From an uncultured virus (IMG/VR IMGVR_UViG_3300024272_000072) (Duplodnaviria > Heunggongvirae > Uroviricota > Caudoviricetes), in the IMG/VR virus record IMGVR_UViG_3300024272_000072: a stretch of DNA of 20,000 nucleotides. One strand, given 5' to 3'. Below, one piece after another: positions 2,127 through 16,444 of the stretch. The notes beneath the pieces were generated by a model. It searched no databases. It worked only from the letters and a program-made list of their open reading frames with translations, and was not told the DNA's origin. How positions within the stretch are numbered: the first letter of the stretch is position 1; the number at the start of each line of letters is the position of its first letter. Made by a program: the position numbers and the translations under genes.

Positions 2127-2270
2127 AATTACACTCAGCAGAATTCAAGTTCTCGTGTAGCGAAATTCAGTGGTAAATGGAATAACAGTGCGAAATGTGG
2201 TGCTTTCTATTGGAATTTGAATAATACTTCGTCGAATTCTAACTCTAATATCGGTGCTCACTCAATGTTC
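2127..2270 (+). repeat. DGR template repeat (TR), 144 bp
   Basis: Adenine-rich copy of the VR (AAT/AAC/AAA/AGT codons at variable positions), lying directly upstream of the RT gene. Confidence 0.97.
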
Positions 2271-2430
2271 AAAAAATTCTTGATATGGAATATGATGTTT
2301 CACCGACATCATATTTCGAAATTAAAGCTCATATCTGATACCCTGGCTCTTGCCAAAACATAGAAACGTTTTATTTGGAGTCGTGCAAGTAAGAAATGAA
2401 AACTCGACCGTAAAGAACATCAACAAAAAA
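2271..2430 (+). ncRNA. DGR RNA 3' spacer (structured region between TR and RT)
   Basis: Perfect 10-bp stem AATATGATGT (2289-2298) / ACATCATATT (2306-2315). CCCTGGCTCTTGCCAAAAC at 2341-2359 resembles motifs I recall downstream of other DGR TRs. Confidence 0.5.
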
Positions 2431-3534
2431 ATGAAAACTTATGACAATTTATGGAATAAAATTATTGATAAAAACAACATATTGAATGCACACTACAACG
2501 CAAAAAAAGACAAATCGCATTATCAAGAAGTCAAGATGGTCGAATCAAATCTTGACTTTTTTATAAATGAAATACACGAAATGCTGAAAAACAAAACATA
2601 TATCATTGAAGACATTGACTATTCAACGTCTGTGATAAATGACAGCTGAAAAGAAAGAGAATTGCGAAAATTGAACTACTACCCACACAGAATCATACAA
2701 CGAGCAATTATGCTACAATTAGAGCCAATTTTTATGGAAGTATTATGCAATCACGTGTGTGCAAGTCTGAAAAAAAGATGAATTCATCACGCATTCAAAT
2801 TGACGCAAAAATACTTGCAAGATGAATGACACACAACATATTGTCTGAAAATCGATGTGAGAAAATTCTACCCAAGCATAGACCACGAAATATTGAAGCA
2901 ATTATTGAGAAGAAAAATCAAAGACAAAGATGTGCTTGAAATTCTTGATATGATTATTGACAGCTACCCTTGAACAAAATGAGTGCCAATTTGAAGCTAT
3001 CTTTCACAGTATCTTGCGAATTATTATCTTGCATATTTCGACCACCGAATGAAAGAAGAAGCGAAATGCAAATACACAGTCAGATATATGGACGACATCA
3101 TCGTTCTGAATGAAAGCAAAACACGACTTCACGAAACATTAGACAAAATCAGAGAAGAACTTTCAGATTTGAAACTTGAAATCAAATGAAACTATCAGAT
3201 TTTTCCAGTCGATAAAAGATGAATTGATTTTGTTTGATATAGATTTTTTAGAAATTTCACATTGTTGAGAAACTGAACAAAAAAGAAAATGAAGAAAAGA
3301 TTGAAAGAAATCAAAGATGAAAAAGCTGACAAACACAAGCTTTTGAATTACAATGAACGGTGCAGTATAAACAGCTACGTTTGACGAATGTTGAGTTGTA
3401 ATCATTACAGATTATTTATGAAATACATTTTGCCATTGATTCCAAGTCTTGACAGATATTATTTTTTTGTTTTATCACATCGCAACGAGAAAAAATTGAA
3501 AAAATATCACGAAAAATTGATGAGTAAGATATAA
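2431..3534 (+). CDS. DGR reverse transcriptase, 367 aa
   Basis: With TGA=Gly and CGA=Trp: GKEREL..YYPHRIIQWAI, YCLKIDVRKFYPSIDH, GVPIGSYLSQYLAN, FDHWMKE, RYMDDI, GIDFVGY, SYVGW. ATG 2431, TAA 3532-3534. Confidence 0.96.
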
Positions 3535-7013: not shown

Positions 7014-7497
7014 ATCTCAAATCTTTACAAGCCCAGATTTCTCTTTTATATGCAGAACATCGATATATATTCACATCATTGACATAAATATAAACTCTTG
7101 CTTGGTCTGATAAATCTTCATCAGCCAATTCGTTCGATAAATTTACAGATTGCCCCCTTGCAATAAAATCAACTGTGTCTTTGATTCATTCAATGTTTGG
7201 AGTTTCTGAATAATAAATATTCAAATCTGCTTCTTTACATTCATCTTTACAGACTACTTTCACAAATTCAGATTGTTCAGCTGAAAATAATTCCGTGATT
7301 CTATCAATTCTTGCTTGAACAACATTTCTCATTTTTTGAGTTTTTGTTGAAACATAAGTTGAAGATGTTGAATTTGACGTTGTTGAAGTGTTTCAATCTT
7401 TCGCAAGACTGTTCAATATTCAACAAACAAAGATGAAAACAATCACTCGAAATCGCCATTTCTTATGCAATGGCTTTTTTGCCTTTTCTTCTGCCAT
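7012..7497 (-). CDS. Membrane-anchored surface protein (161 aa); possible superinfection-exclusion protein
   Basis: MAEEKAKKPLHKKWWFWVIVFIFVCGILNSLAKDGNTSTTSNSTSST...: the familiar KKPxxKKWWFW anchor plus an S/T linker. Only reverse-strand gene found, next to the recombinase. Confidence 0.8.
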
Positions 7498-7526
7498 TTT
7501 GAACGACTTATGATATAAATGAAATC

Positions 7527-7554
7527 AATATACAGAATCACTTTCGAATGTCAA
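7527..7554 (-). promoter_or_regulatory. Sigma70-like promoter for the reverse-strand gene
   Basis: Minus strand TTGACA-N16-TATATT, about 30 nt upstream of ATG 7497. Confidence 0.6.
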
Positions 7555-7558
7555 TAGA

Positions 7559-7592
7559 TTGACATTTGACAAAAAAAATATATAAATATACT
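7559..7592 (+). promoter_or_regulatory. Probable promoter for the recombinase gene
   Basis: Tandem TTGACA at 7559 and 7566, followed by TATAAA (7581) and TATACT (7587); divergent from the reverse-strand promoter. Confidence 0.5.
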
Positions 7593-7649
7593 CGTTGACA
7601 TAAGCTTATGAAACACACAAATCTTTTTATATGCTTATGTTTTTTATCA

Positions 7650-8591
7650 ATGAATGAATTTATAGAAATATTACAACAACGACGTGATTATGAAGAAAAC
7701 GTCAGAAATCACAATTCATATATCAATCGCTTCTATATTATAAGAAACTTCTGAAAATATCTTGTTTCTATCAAGCCACAATTCAAGCTTGAAGAAATCG
7801 AACTATATGAAATCATTCAATATCTTGTATATTACAGAACGCACAAAAATTGCAGATGAACAATACCGAGCAGATGTGCTGAATACAATGTGATTTGTGC
7901 AATCAGAAATTTTTTCAGATTCTGCAATATTCTTTGAATGCGTTTGAAATTTAATCGAGAACAGATTCCGATGTTCAAACAAGAGCCAGTGAAACGTGAG
8001 CCAATGAGCGAAGAAGATTATCAACTAATGCACACAGCAATCAGATTGTTTTCAAAATCAGAAGAAATCAGATTGCGTGATGAACTGATGATTGAAATAC
8101 CACGAGAAACTTGATTGAGAAAATCTGAAATTGTCAGATGTAAGTTCAAAGATTTTCACAATGAAAACAGACAATTCAAAGTTCTTGTGAAGTGAAATAG
8201 ATATGAATCAGTATTTTTTTCTGAAAAATTACAGAAAAAAGTTTTTGAATATGAAAACATATTGAATCAGAAATACAAACATCTTGATATTGAAAAGCTT
8301 TTCATTTGTTTATGACAGAAAGAAAAGTGAAAAGAAATCAGTTCTGATTTATTATGAAGACATTTTCTCTTGATTGTGAGAAGAATGAAGAAAGAATGAA
8401 TGATTCCGAAGAACAAAACGCTTTGTCTTCATCAAGAAAGACATTCATTCGCAATGCGTTGTGTTTATTCTTGATTATCACAACAAGCAACAACGAGATT
8501 GATGAGACATTCAGACCCAAAAATCACGCTTCATTATTATCATATGAACGATTCACGATTACTGGATCAATATGATTCGATTCGTGTATAA
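7650..8591 (+). CDS. int: Tyrosine recombinase / integrase (XerC/D-like), 313 aa
   Basis: Catalytic residues in order: ETGLRKSE (R), LVKG (K), HQERHSFA (HxxR), LMRHSDPKITLHYY (H, Y). Confidence 0.9.
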
Positions 8592-8743
8592 AATTCCAAC
8601 AGCGAAAATATCATTAAAAATAAAAAAGTCAAAACTTTGTCATTTTTTTTCGTTTCAAGGCTTCATACCTGCTATTTGAAAATTCAATTAAGAATTGATT
8701 TTTTTCGATTTAATTTTTTTTATAAAAAAAAGTCGTCAAAAAT

Positions 8744-8771
8744 TTGCATTTTTGGAAAATTTTTATATAAT
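8744..8771 (+). promoter_or_regulatory. Sigma70-like early promoter
   Basis: TTGCAT-N16-TATAAT upstream of the structured leader and the early operon. Confidence 0.6.
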
Positions 8772-8774
8772 AGA

Positions 8775-9045
8775 TTTCAGTTAAGTTTGAAAATCGAATG
8801 AAAATGTCTTTGATTGCAAAAAATTGATGACTTTTTTCAAGAGATTATTCGTATCGTCAAGGTTCTACAATTCCGAAGTAGCTTATGTCAACCGATACGA
8901 CAGCAACAAACTTGACTGTCGTTCAATATCACATCATATTTAATTCCGACAAACAAAGATGTTGAAATGAACGACACAACATCTTTGTTCGTCTGAATTG
9001 ATTTGTGTGTAAGATTCGAACGAACAAAGGTTCGAGTCTTTTTAT
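8775..9045 (+). ncRNA. Putative structured regulatory RNA / attenuator leader with antisense segments
   Basis: Stems 8849-8856/8893-8900, 8898-8903/8916-8921 and 8942-8964/8977-8999. Alternative pairings 8917-8925/8968-8976 and 8983-8992/9020-9029. Complementary to 16375-16416 and to 7594-7623. Confidence 0.6.
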
Positions 9046-9047
9046 TT
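9011..9047 (+). terminator. Intrinsic terminator/attenuator hairpin before the first early gene
   Basis: AAGATTCGAAC-GAACAAAG-GTTCGAGTCTT followed by TTTATTT. Confidence 0.65.
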
Positions 9048-9061
9048 AATCACAAAATCAG

Positions 9062-9226
9062 ATGAGAATCAGATGAGTTGTTGCAATAGTTGTGAGCATT
9101 ATTGTGTGAATGTTCACGCCAGCTGGACTATATGTATATACGATTCCGTTTCTCATTTGATGTATGTGATGAAAAAAAGTTCGAAAATTTTATTTCAATT
9201 TTTTCTTCAAGCAAGATGACGAATAA
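9062..9226 (+). CDS. Small membrane protein (54 aa), first early gene
   Basis: MRIRGVVAIVVSIIVGMFTPAGLYVYTIPFLIGCMGGKKVWKFYFNFFFKQDDE*; overlaps the next start. Confidence 0.55.
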
Positions 9227-9947
9227 AAACTATTTCAAATGTTTTCGCTTGTTTCTTGAAACTTGAAAGAAGCTTGATGATTCGATGAAGTGAAAATATT
9301 ATGAATCATTGCTTGAATATTGACTTGATTGAATCAAGCCCACTGATCCAATCATCGACGCGTTGTTGACTTCTGCGATGTATTCGATTGACAAATCAGA
9401 TGAAGAACTGAAAAGAAAATCTGAATCAATGCAATGAAATCAAAACGCAGTCAAGAGCTTTGAAAAGCTATCAAAACAGAAAAAAACAGACAAAAACAAA
9501 AACAAACAGAACGAAACAGAGAAAAACATATGAAGAAAAGAAGTATATGAAGAATATGAAGATAATACAAACAATAATAAAATCATCATAAATGATGATT
9601 CAGAATCAAAAGATTCTGTTCAGTATTGAAATGAAGAAGTGAATAAATGTCTGACGAGAATCAAATCATATAATTGATGACTATTAGATTGAACAGTCAA
9701 AAACAATCGCAGATATGCAAAACTTCTGATTGATAAACTGAACAAACTTGAATCGATTCAAGCTTGAAAATACACACGAGAAGAAACGCTTGACATCATT
9801 CTTCAAGTGATTTCGAAAAACAAATACCACGTTTCGAAAATTACATCAGCAGAATCGATTTATCGCAATCTTGCAGTTCTTATGCAGACGTGCAAGAATG
9901 ACATTTGAAAAGCACAATCGAATCAAATCATTTTACCTACAATTTAA
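9216..9947 (+). CDS. Phage replication initiator / replisome organiser (DUF6291-like N-terminus), 243 aa
   Basis: N-terminal ..KKLDDSMKGKYYESLLEYGLDGIKP..MQGNQNA, then a low-complexity K/N/Q linker containing DNA repeats, then a C-terminal domain. This is lambda O-like architecture at the start of the early operon. Confidence 0.7.
9471..9618 (+). repeat. Iteron-like repeats and palindromes; putative replication origin
   Basis: Six phased 10-bp units with consensus nnnAAACAGA (9471-9530), then palindromes AATCATCAT-AA-ATGATGATT and CAGAATC-AAAA-GATTCTG (9581-9618). Confidence 0.6.
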
Positions 9948-10278: not shown

Positions 10279-10479
10279 ATGCCGATTGAATGAATTACCG
10301 AACGAGAAACACAGCCATTGTTCAAAATCTTTCTTCGCAGAATATGATTCAAGAACTTTGACGAATACATTGAACTGTTTTGAGACAATATCGAAAAGAG
10401 AAAAGAAACAGTTCGCCGATTTCAAAAAACATACCCACTTTTTACCATTAAAAAACAAGAGAAATGAAAAACATCTTAA
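10279..10479 (+). CDS. Hypothetical protein (66 aa)
   Basis: Open with TGA=Gly; tightly packed between neighbours. Confidence 0.55.
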
Positions 10480-11069
10480 AAAAACTCGCAGAAGCAAAAA
10501 AGAATATTGCTTCACAGAAAATCACAAAAGAGTGAAAGAACACTTATTCAAACTATTCATATTTCACGCCAGAACAAGTCAGTTCAATTGTTCAGAAAGC
10601 GTGTGATGAATTCAAACTGTTCACAAAATTTGACTTGATCCGTGATGAACAGTGAATCGAATGACAGTTGACGATATACGATATTGAATCAGATGAAAAT
10701 ATCACGTTCATTTGAGCAACTGCAATTCCAGAAATCAAAGCAACGAACGTTGCACAACAAATCTGATGATGTATGACATACACCGAAAGATATTTGAAAA
10801 TGACAGCGTTCTGAATCGCAGACAATTCACTTGATTTCGATACGACTGAAAACACAGAAAAGACAGCGAAAGCACAATCAAAAGCTGAAACTAAAAAAGA
10901 AACAAAGCGATTCAACAAAGAACAACTCGAAAACTTGAAAACAAATACTGAATACTTGAAGAAATTCGAGAAATCAGACGATTTGCTTCAAGACATTCAG
11001 AAACTTTGATATTCAGTCAGCAAAGAAATGAAGATGAAGATTGCTGATGTTCGAGCAAGTGTTGAATAG
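10464..11069 (+). CDS. erf: ERF-family single-strand annealing protein (201 aa)
   Basis: KEGKNTYSNYSYF near the N-terminus and AQQIGGCMTYTERYLKMTAFGIAD, matching the ERF Q..G...TY.rRY....fgi motif. Confidence 0.8.
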
Positions 11070-16286: not shown

Positions 16287-16309
16287 AAACACAAAGATAT
16301 TGAATCAAG

Positions 16310-16333
16310 AAAGTCGGAAATTCCGACTTTTTT
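16310..16333 (+). terminator. Intrinsic terminator closing the early operon
   Basis: AAAGTCGGA-AAT-TCCGACTTT followed by a T tract. Confidence 0.85.
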
Positions 16334-16364
16334 CAAAAAGATTTCGTTTTGAATCAAAATAATA

Positions 16365-16444
16365 TAATATCATATTGACATAAGATATTCGGAAATTGTA
16401 GAGCGTTGACGATACGTGCGTATTTATCTTCGCTTTCTTTTTTT
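16365..16444 (+). promoter_or_regulatory. Late-operon -10 box and 5' leader containing the inverted copy of 8850-8891
   Basis: TATAAT at 16365-16370 with no good -35; 42-nt element at 16375-16416; a short hairpin and T tract before ATG 16445. Confidence 0.55.

Follow-up and report, generated by a model that had tools for sequence, protein, structure and literature searches.

Antisense-RNA immunity, as in phages P1 and P4, and integration-dependent switches, as in BPs and at lambda sib, are known separately. The locus described here appears to combine the two. Lambda sib is a structured RNA element downstream of int and on the far side of attP, with a long hairpin and a terminator, and integration separates it from int. 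A retroregulator of this type lacks its own promoter and works in cis, by means of RNase III, on int transcripts that read through. The CI RNA of P4 is a small RNA from a leader transcript that pairs with phage leader sites and controls transcription termination, and the split-operon idea for P2 int holds that integration parts a gene from its promoter. The c4 RNA of P1 and P7 is described as a phage antisense RNA whose loops pair with another phage message and vary between related phages; its target overlaps the ribosome-binding site, and pairing blocks translation (PMC12197685). In the accounts of BPs and its relatives, attP lies inside a regulatory gene, and integration changes the regulator that is made (PMC4557955, PMC3694055).

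The window, which is the whole 20,000-nucleotide stretch of DNA that was analysed, is from a temperate phage of a gut bacterium using genetic code 25 (TGA read as glycine), and it spans only part of a phage genome of about 36 kb. It has no match in a collection of GenBank phages. According to our preferred reading, to which we assign a probability of roughly 50%, an RNA that spans attP is a type-specific antisense partner of the late-operon leader, a segment of the integrase leader (box A) is a weaker target, and a second segment (box B) is not a target. The features are listed in Table 1.

Table 1. Features of the integrase, RNA-unit and late-operon regions, in window coordinates
Feature	Position	Strand	Remarks
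Promoter-like site of divergent sie-like gene	7527-7554	-	TTGACA-16-TATATT, 11/12
Candidate integrase promoter	7560-7588	+	-35 TTGACA 7560-7565, -10-like TATAAA 7582-7587; read by eye
Box A	7594-7606	+	Exact complement of 8880-8892; holds 5' arm of leader hairpin
Integrase leader hairpin	7597-7645	+	Outer stem 7597-7605/7633-7641, inner stem 7607-7613/7625-7631, loop 7614-7624
Box B	7613-7623	+	Exact complement of 9000-9010; the variable loop of the leader hairpin
Tyrosine integrase, 313 aa	7650-8591	+	PF00589, E 1.6e-16, residues 129-302
Promoter-like site of RNA unit	8743-8771	+	TTTGCA-17-TATAAT, 10/12
Putative structured non-coding RNA unit, ~270 nt	8778-9048	+	Closing helix 8778-8789/8907-8918
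attP core region	8806-8831		From prophage-host junction contigs L069 and L073
Predicted antisense hairpin domain	8849-8900	+	Stem 8849-8855/8894-8900, apical hairpin 8865-8868/8878-8881
Box A partner	8880-8892	+	Exact complement of 7594-7606
Long near-perfect hairpin	8942-8999	+	23-nt arms, 12-nt loop
Box B partner	9000-9010	+	9004-9010 predicted (consensus fold) to pair inside the RNA with 8931-8938
Intrinsic-terminator-like hairpin and T-run	9011-9048	+	11 pairs; stem kept through one-sided changes
Late-operon -10-like TATAAT	16363-16368	+	No good -35; 6 nt upstream of complementary segment; by eye
Late-leader 5' segment	16375-16416	+	~88% complementary to RNA 8850-8891
Late-leader hairpin and U-run	16400-16444	+	Hairpin 16400-16436, U-run 16438-16444

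The integrase gene, the RNA unit and the attachment site

The integrase gene contains 10 in-frame TGA codons read as glycine, and its translation shows ETGLR (in which one of these glycines occurs), RHSFAMR and RH...LHYY, which together supply the catalytic residues of a tyrosine recombinase (R..HxxR..H/W..Y). Its relatives among solved structures are solely XerH/XerD-like recombinases, of which XerH and XerD are nearest, and one 317-residue Int protein. The promoter scan did not flag the candidate integrase promoter; if this site acts, the transcript would start within about 2 nt of position 7594. The divergent sie-like gene (7015-7497) has PHROG superinfection-exclusion matches with E values of 5e-6 and 4e-5.

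The RNA unit lies downstream of the integrase gene, where the earlier note had placed a non-coding RNA, and what is found there is a conserved and structured element. Its predicted fold has an energy of -80 kcal/mol (z -6.8; 0 of 200 shuffles were as stable). The consensus structure of six aligned sequences has 78 pairs, and compensatory changes occur in 6 of these. Because indels among the six sequences are not in multiples of three, and the reading frame spanning the unit has no Pfam or PHROG match, the region behaves as non-coding. Relatives carry equivalent TTGACA-type sites at the position of the promoter. These features make it likely that the RNA exists. None of the sequencing runs listed as containing the region is registered as RNA.

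Judged by sequence identity, the unit is better conserved than its surroundings. Comparison of the relative L063 with the window gives 73% identity in the integrase coding sequence, 88% in the antisense domain and 97% in the terminator, and the spacer upstream of the RNA promoter is 63% identical. The bacterial genome G001 is the same as the window across 8861-8977, with flanks that diverge; one of its contigs breaks within the 3' arm of the long hairpin. G001 is also the only one of 399 scored genomes of its class in which the RNA region is present, and the other 18 matches are short A/T-rich stretches. A 15-mer from the RNA occurs at 27 loci in the viral contig collection, four of which are true relatives, and a 17-mer occurs at 19 loci in the genome contig collection, one of which is a true relative. 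A T-arm-like stretch at 9013-9040 was considered as part of a tRNA or tmRNA. This assignment was rejected because neither ARAGORN nor Rfam finds a tRNA or tmRNA in the window, and the stretch belongs to the terminator-like hairpin.

Two junction contigs, L069 and L073, locate the attachment site. They carry different phage variants, yet both are collinear with the phage to position 8821 and then enter the same host flank, which contains a terminator, tRNA-Arg-CCG and a ComF-like gene with six in-frame TGA codons at glycine positions. Because the sequences diverge after 8821, attP lies between the promoter of the RNA and the antisense domain, and integration probably splits the RNA gene. The attachment site within the RNA unit had escaped the earlier note. 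Six U residues come after a hairpin at the att core, and this structure might halt some transcripts before the antisense domain. The second prophage junction, in which host DNA would precede the core and the body of the RNA, was not found among the contigs; thus, in lysogens, the antisense domain might still be transcribed from a promoter in the host DNA.

Searches for the host flank of L069 gave no match in G001 and, with an exact 28-mer, none in the genome contig collection. In 201 genomes of the order to which G001 belongs, the flank gave three matches of 29-57 nt (E 1e-5 to 6e-4), none of them useful. G001 itself was rejected as the host, because its rpoB frame runs for 1238 aa with no internal stop, and both the phage and the host flank use TGA as a sense codon.

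Complementarity to the late-operon and integrase leaders

The late leader precedes a gene for an HNH endonuclease, whose ATG (16445) abuts the U-run, and genes for a ParB-methyltransferase and the large terminase come after it. The segment complementary to the RNA includes the 5' arm (16400-16405) of the late-leader hairpin. The relative G005, in which the leader was located with a gapped pattern, has the same layout with an outer stem that is two pairs longer, and the hairpin and U-run are retained in both G005 and G003. The late-leader hairpin is no more stable than shuffled sequences (z -0.6). The promoter scan did not flag the late -10-like hexamer, and both this hairpin and that of the integrase leader fall short of the G+C-pair and loop-size requirements of the terminator scan.

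The window, G003 and G005 each have their own version of the loop and of a TTGAC-GATACG segment, and each version is found in both partners. When duplex energies are arranged in a 3x3 matrix of these RNAs and leaders, each RNA and each leader has its cognate as the most stable partner. Cognate duplexes have energies of -54.6, -50.0 and -45.4 kcal/mol, versus -33.6 to -43.4 kcal/mol for non-cognate pairs and -16.1 ± 3.2 kcal/mol for shuffled late-leader targets, in a comparison that covers three phage types only. Mismatches specific to each partner are conserved in the pairing. After the cost of self-structure is paid, a net gain of -31 to -33 kcal/mol remains, with the late-leader hairpin predicted to be dissolved. 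These are domain-level predictions, which replaced whole-RNA long-range predictions that were swamped by A/U-rich pairing. The RNA probably pairs with the late leader. In another relative, L067, an integrase leader of the window type is combined with a G003-like RNA.

The integrase leader has a layout like that of the late leader: a promoter-like -10, a shared 10-mer near the predicted start, a hairpin, a U-run and the ATG. The self-fold that the earlier note described upstream of the integrase ATG is present (-13.7 kcal/mol, z -4.1; 0 of 200 shuffles were as stable), and the U-run at 7640-7645 makes it terminator-like. The nine distinct integrase leaders conserve the stems and the U-run and vary in the loop.

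Both complementarities reported in the earlier note are exact, over 13 nt for box A and 11 nt for box B, and neither can be extended by one base. Box A is identical in all five loci found through the integrase protein, at integrase identities down to 42%, and its partner is invariant in all five distinct RNA variants, where it is unpaired in the centroid fold and forms part of an internal loop. Box A and its partner show no variation and hence no covariation. Box B is replaced in three leader types (L065, L071 and L066/G001) in which 9000-9010 is unchanged, so that for this box the lack of co-conservation that the earlier note had set as a refutation is observed. Moreover, the partners are arranged on the RNA in the order A'...B', 107 nt apart, and a simple antiparallel bipartite duplex needs the order B'-A'. 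The proposed two-site design is therefore not supported, and box B is very unlikely to be functional. Of the bipartite match, the box A half is worth following and the box B half is not.

Pairing of the RNA with the folded integrase leader brings a net gain of only 0 to -0.9 kcal/mol. The idea that one RNA controls both the integrase and the late genes is supported insofar as a single domain is complementary to both leaders and the late leader co-varies with it, but pairing at the integrase leader gains almost no energy. The late leader is plausibly the main target, and box A is a plausible and much weaker second one. That box A is a functional target at all is a tentative proposal.

Operators, cis-acting elements and chance

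The shared segments could instead be DNA operators, although we consider this unlikely. Sites of the TTGACATAAG type would then be bound by the integrase or by a phage repressor or directionality factor, and the RNA complementarity would be a by-product of inverted operator reuse. The integrase copy, overlapping the box A region, forms a palindrome that is perfect over 12 nt (7599-7610), of the kind bound by a dimeric repressor; the 42-nt element has a pair of similar half-sites in direct orientation, TTGACATAAG and TTGACGATACG, separated by about 31 nt; and both forward copies are at the predicted +1 of the integrase and late promoters. The third copy is ~60-70 nt from the att core, a distance at which attP accessory sites occur in other phages. 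A precedent is the repressor of mycobacteriophage BPs, which is described as binding 12-bp palindromes and half-sites at several places in the genome (PMC4557955). However, operators do not account for the concerted change in the sequence separating the half-sites, which forms the apical loop of the RNA hairpin. They also leave unexplained why the RNA unit has compensatory pairs and promoter-like and terminator-like sites and why U-runs are conserved after both leader hairpins. No solved-structure match covers the first ~80 residues of the 313-aa integrase, which therefore shows no sign of an arm-binding domain, and Pfam searches (E up to 0.01) recognised neither a repressor-like nor a helix-turn-helix family in 30 candidate ORFs near int and in the early region. 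Because the window is a partial genome, a repressor gene may sit outside it.

The structured region might also act in cis, either as the 5' leader of the early operon or as an element on integrase read-through transcripts that, like lambda sib, is removed by integration; the similarity to the late leader would then be an old inverted duplication kept for another reason. The region follows int immediately, on the far side of the att core, a geometry that lambda sib shares, and the near-perfect 23-bp hairpin would suit a double-strand-specific RNase. In addition, the region ends 14-25 nt before the next ATGs (9062 and 9073), and no strong promoter is seen between the RNA unit and the early genes. 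Yet the stretch from int to the core holds a promoter-like site for the RNA itself, and a cis-acting element does not predict type-specific co-variation with a site that is 7.5 kb away (23.5 kb in G005). We regard this explanation as rather improbable.

A further possibility is that the integrase-leader hairpin is kept for a function of its own, as an attenuator, stabiliser or translational element, that the matches of the leader to the RNA are coincidental or a by-product, and that the RNA controls the late operon only. Short matches are indeed common. The 271-nt RNA has seven exact complementary matches of at least 11 nt to the plus strand of the window, and among 200 shuffled RNAs, the longest match to the window is 11 nt or more in 170 and 13 nt or more in 32. 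Taken singly at the scale of the window, the box B match is therefore nothing unusual and the box A match is borderline. Co-conservation is absent for box B, pairing with the folded leader yields no net energy, and the most distant relative (L062/G006), in which the gene order is different, keeps box A with no partner sequence detectable in the 13.3 kb examined. The boxes gain weight from their position, not from match length alone: both lie within 30 nt in the single leader that adjoins the RNA gene. When dinucleotide shuffles were used to compare this leader region (110 nt) with the region that follows int (496 nt), a match of at least 13 nt arose in 17 of 1000 shuffles, and the combination of 13 and 11 nt in none of 1000. 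The 10-mer at 7595-7604, within box A, also opens the co-varying late-leader target, so that both involve the same seed in the RNA loop, and a loop of the ACACACA type persists in five of the nine distinct leaders. Coincidence in the integrase leader seems quite improbable.

Finally, although inverted repeats adjoin a recombinase gene, it is most improbable that site-specific inversion acts on the inverted copies (7594-7606/8880-8892 or 8850-8891/16375-16416), given that all six relatives with both copies share one orientation, that no strand-changing joint occurs in assembled contigs from four runs (X15, X16, X17 and X10) and that the actual att core is elsewhere and unlike these repeats.

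Comparison with known systems and a proposed mechanism

The likeness to c4 is limited to type-specific antisense loops: the loop at 8869-8877 changes together with the late leader across three phage types, and the loops of c4, from the immI regions of P1 and P7, differ between related phages and so confer type specificity. Unlike c4, which is 77 nt long and has an antirepressor gene as its target, the present RNA is ~270 nt long, its gene is interrupted by attP, and its putative main target is a late-operon leader. The complementarities end at 7606 and 16416, which is 43 and 28 nt upstream of the start codons (at 7650 and 16445, respectively), and do not overlap a ribosome-binding site. Pairing in two segments, as in c4, is not seen, because the second short site (box B) is not conserved. 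No Rfam family reaches its gathering score anywhere in the window. At E values up to 10, the region 8560-9120 has 25 weak matches, none of them to C4; most are to microRNA-precursor models, as for a generic hairpin, and the rest are to sRNA, snoRNA and cis-regulatory models far below their cut-offs.

As with lambda sib, the domain (from 8849) is beyond attP (exit at 8821) from int (ending at 8591), so that integration uncouples the two, and a long hairpin and a terminator are present. In contrast to sib, the RNA is preceded by a promoter-like site (10/12) that lies after int and before the core. Its complementarity is to the 5' leaders of the integrase gene and the late operon, whereas sib acts on the 3' end of int, and co-variation with a site so far away points to a trans-acting RNA. 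The RNA resembles the P4 CI RNA, by description only, in being a small RNA that would pair with phage leaders. In P4, however, pairing terminates transcription within the RNA's own operon, whereas here it would cover the 5' arms of terminator-like hairpins in two other operons and predicts read-through. The parting of a promoter from its gene by integration resembles the split-operon idea for P2.

As in BPs, attP is within a regulator gene. In BPs, a repressor protein loses its degradation tag upon integration, but here the regulator would be a non-coding RNA whose promoter and antisense domain are parted. No truncated repressor is apparent at this locus; none of the 30 ORFs is recognised as a repressor, and the region appears non-coding by its indels.

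The sequences, their conservation and co-variation, the predicted folds and the junction contigs are observed; from these we infer the following mechanism, including transcription, start sites, action in trans and direction of regulation. An RNA of ~270 nt would be transcribed across the attachment site from its own promoter-like site to its terminator-like site. The hairpin domain would pair, as a type-specific antisense element, with the initial ~42 nt of the leader of the late (packaging) operon, and the 13-nt internal loop of this domain could also pair with box A, the 13 nt with which the integrase leader would begin. Because the paired segment in both leaders contains the 5' arm of the hairpin that precedes the U-run, pairing would block the hairpin, and it most plausibly occurs during transcription. 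If the hairpins are attenuators, the RNA would activate the genes. Alternately, if they are protective 5' structures, the RNA would destabilise the messages. Because attP is between the promoter and the antisense domain, the full RNA could be made only from the unintegrated (circular) genome, and the RNA would thus report the integration state.

An extension of this mechanism, which we think unlikely, is that lysogeny is achieved with no repressor protein. The RNA would be the master lytic regulator, with a gene that is cut by integration, and would open the attenuators of int and the late operon by means of its type-specific loop. The loop would then be an RNA "immunity" determinant, and the prophage would be silent for the sole reason that the promoter and the antisense domain are at its opposite ends. 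If this is true, the locus would be an RNA counterpart of integration-dependent immunity, in phages of candidate-phyla bacteria that have recoded TGA to glycine.

The three natural pairs of RNA and leader are a directly testable specificity matrix. The loop of a putative RNA that spans attP appears to co-evolve with the late leader, and integration itself would switch the regulator off. If the preferred reading is true, such an RNA would be a simple physical memory of the lysis-lysogeny decision, and the locus would give an initial glimpse of how genes are regulated in phages whose uncultured bacterial hosts read TGA as glycine.

Genetic code and gene content

Under translation table 11 the window contains short ORFs only, and the frames open when TGA is read as sense. 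In-frame TGA codons occur at glycine positions, both in the recombinase motif ETGLR and, six times, in a host ComF-like gene, and therefore indicate table 25, which, judged from sequence, is the genetic code of the phage. TGA is enriched 2.8-fold in the window, all six frames contain few TAA and TAG codons, and the dinucleotides GG, TA, and CC occur at 0.15, 0.41, and 0.47 of expectation. Because this skewed composition leaves many overlapping open frames under code 25, ORF length says little about where genes lie. The gene map comes from PHROG and Pfam scans of the window.

Features of the window
Feature	Coordinates	Strand	Evidence or comment
Diversity-generating retroelement repeats	1731-1873, 2128-2270		143-nt variable repeat, in tail-like gene
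Reverse transcriptase	2350-3531		phrog_1423, E 5e-106
Sie-like membrane protein	7015-7497	minus	PHROG/Pfam scans
Terminator-like hairpin	7455-7480	plus	
Box A	7594-7606	plus	int leader
Box B	7613-7623	plus	int leader
Tyrosine integrase (int)	7650-8591		PF00589, E 1.6e-16
Promoter-like site	8743-8771		10/12
Putative RNA unit	8778-9048	plus	
Antisense domain (hairpin)	8849-8900		52 nt
Terminator-like hairpin and T-run	9011-9048		
11-nt unit AATCAGATGAG, twice in tandem	9056-9077		
10-nt A-rich unit, six copies	9464-9538		
Erf-like annealing protein, one of the early genes	10464-11066		
Terminator-like hairpin	~16308-16336		
Late block	from 16445		HNH endonuclease, ParB-methyltransferase, large terminase

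The variable repeat of the retroelement differs from its template at 31 positions, 30 of which are template adenines, and the reverse transcriptase gene follows the repeats. The closest records are G002, a 35,960-bp virus contig with terminal repeats (94% identity over 7495-9600), and phage contigs C33, C58, and C7 within G001, a 1.2-Mb genome bin. The rpoB gene of this bin is a 1238-amino-acid open frame without internal stop, in contrast to the phage and its true host flank, in which TGA is a sense codon; the assignment of the phage contigs to this bin is probably an error.

Position 7495 is a recurrent mosaic breakpoint, where homology to G002 begins and to the left of which contigs from two sequencing runs are unrelated. 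Since the sie-like gene begins here, the moron that precedes int is apparently exchangeable. Within the 5' end of this gene, a terminator-like hairpin immediately precedes the int promoter region. One contig of a single sequencing run (X10) joins 7585 to 8605, omitting 1019 nt that hold the int gene; the shorter side of this joint is only 27 nt, with likeness below 95%, and the joint may reflect another element or a repeat artefact.

A putative RNA unit probably interrupted at the attachment site

The segment 8778-9048, downstream of int, appears to be a noncoding RNA unit, flanked by a promoter-like site and ending in a terminator-like hairpin. Its predicted fold has an energy of -80 kcal/mol (z -6.8), and the consensus structure built from six sequences has 78 pairs, of which six show compensatory changes; the indel lengths are not multiples of three. 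In a relative whose int coding sequence shares 73% identity, the unit is conserved beyond its surroundings: identity is 88% in the antisense domain and 97% in the terminator, as against 63% in the spacer preceding the promoter. No Rfam family matches the segment, and ARAGORN finds neither tRNA nor tmRNA in the window. The tandem 11-nt unit directly follows the terminator and is kept in relatives, and the A-rich units lie within the first early gene. Assemblies tend to break in the RNA region: G001 is interrupted in the long hairpin, within its 3' arm (8977-8997), and the record L074 ends in the RNA body near window position ~8904.

The metagenome contigs L069 and L073, which differ in their variants of the leader-int-promoter module, both follow the phage to base 8821 and then enter one common foreign flank with a hairpin and T-run, a tRNA-Arg(CCG) gene, and the ComF-like gene. 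Just past the break, GAC and then a T-run are still common to phage and flank, and att sites often have such sequence shared on both sides. The contigs are likely prophage-host junctions. Because the break falls at 8821, integration would part the antisense domain, the long hairpin, and the terminator from the promoter; the closing helix of the RNA (8778-8789/8907-8918) spans the break. A second junction was not found in G001, 201 genomes of its order, or the genome contigs searched.

Leaders of the int gene and the late operon

An earlier note proposed that boxes A and B of the int leader pair in bipartite fashion with this RNA. Both complementarities are exact (box A with 8880-8892, box B with 9000-9010) and neither extends; the observation as a whole is confirmed, as is the hairpin of the int leader, at -13.7 kcal/mol (z -4.1). 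In local shuffles of the leader against the region downstream of int, a 13-mer match arose in 17 of 1000 cases and the two matches together in 0 of 1000; their joint occurrence is locally unlikely by chance. At the scale of the window, the RNA has seven exact complementary matches of at least 11 nt, and among 200 shuffled RNAs the longest match was 11 nt or more in 170 and 13 nt or more in 32. A simple antiparallel bipartite duplex requires the partners in the order B'-A', whereas the RNA has A' and then B', 107 nt apart.

Box A is unchanged in all five loci found through the integrase protein alone (92, 85, 86, 65, and 42% identity), and its partner, located in the internal loop of the hairpin domain, is invariant in all five distinct RNA variants. 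Nine more metagenome stretches add leader and RNA variants; because their search pattern contained box A, they are uninformative on its conservation. Nine distinct leaders keep both stems and the U-run, with a loop, equivalent to box B, that varies in sequence and length. The loops of L064, L063, L072, and L067 retain an ACACACA-type stretch of 7-8 nt complementary to the RNA; in L067 the leader is that of the window and the RNA is another variant. Those of L065, L071, and L066/G001 have no such complementarity, yet their 9000-9010 segments are identical to the window. In the consensus fold, 9004-9010 pairs with 8931-8938 inside the RNA, which by itself explains the conservation of that segment. 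The earlier interpretation is partly supported: box A belongs to a conserved relationship between RNA and leaders in which the late operon is the principal partner, and box B, which fails the co-conservation check set by the earlier note, is most likely incidental. In the most distant relative, L062 (G006), with an integrase of 42% identity, the leader hairpin and box A are retained and the late genes (ParB-methyltransferase, terminase, protease, capsid) converge on int; no partner of box A was found in the 13.3 kb examined.

The 10-mer TTGACATAAG common to box A has one further plus-strand copy, at 16375, located 6 nt past a TATAAT, just past a terminator-like hairpin, and upstream of the late operon. 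The 42 nt from 16375 are ~88% complementary to RNA positions 8850-8891. In two related records, G003 and G005, this layout recurs with a sequence particular to each, and across the three types the apical loop (8869-8877 in the window) and a TTGAC-GATACG segment change jointly in the RNA and the late leader. Computed duplex energies of the 52-nt domain with the late leaders are -54.6 (window), -50.0 (G003), and -45.4 kcal/mol (G005) for cognate pairs, -33.6 to -43.4 kcal/mol for noncognate pairs, and -16.1 +/- 3.2 kcal/mol for shuffled targets; the cognate pair is best in every row and column. The main rival explanation is that a DNA-binding protein uses the same sequences as operators. Box A does contain a 12-nt palindrome, and BPs offers a precedent (PMC4557955), but the spacer between the half-sites changes in concert and the covariation is of the RNA type, which argues against operators.

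RNA pairing with the late leader yields a predicted net gain of -31 to -33 kcal/mol after the cost of self-structure, and the leader hairpin is gone in the predicted complex. For the folded int leader the gain is just 0 to -0.9 kcal/mol, so box A could matter there only kinetically, during leader synthesis. Both leaders present, in order, a -10-like hexamer, the shared 10-mer, a hairpin, a U-run, and a start codon, with the 10-mer a few nucleotides from the predicted start and the 5' arm of the hairpin within the RNA-complementary segment. Pairing would lead to read-through, and hence activation, if the leader hairpins act as attenuators, and to decay if they protect the 5' ends.

Proposed regulation and known systems

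Perhaps the full RNA is made from the unintegrated genome only. As the late leader, and possibly also the int leader, is being transcribed, the loop and internal loop of the RNA would then pair with it and alter the fate of the transcript, and integration would turn the RNA off. No recognizable repressor was found among 30 ORFs tested in the window, which is only about half of the genome; this negative and incomplete result agrees with an RNA mechanism.

The position of the RNA relative to int and attP matches that of lambda sib. Like c4 of P1/P7 (PMC12197685), the RNA has type-specific antisense loops. Unlike c4, it has no model match, ribosome-binding-site overlap, or second conserved site, and it is not a family member. 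As in the integration-dependent immunity of BPs, where attP is within a regulator gene (PMC4557955), attP would lie inside the regulator gene of this phage. The best matches of a limited full-text literature search included no description of an attP-split RNA regulator. The proposed attP-split RNA is a more interesting result than the box matches.
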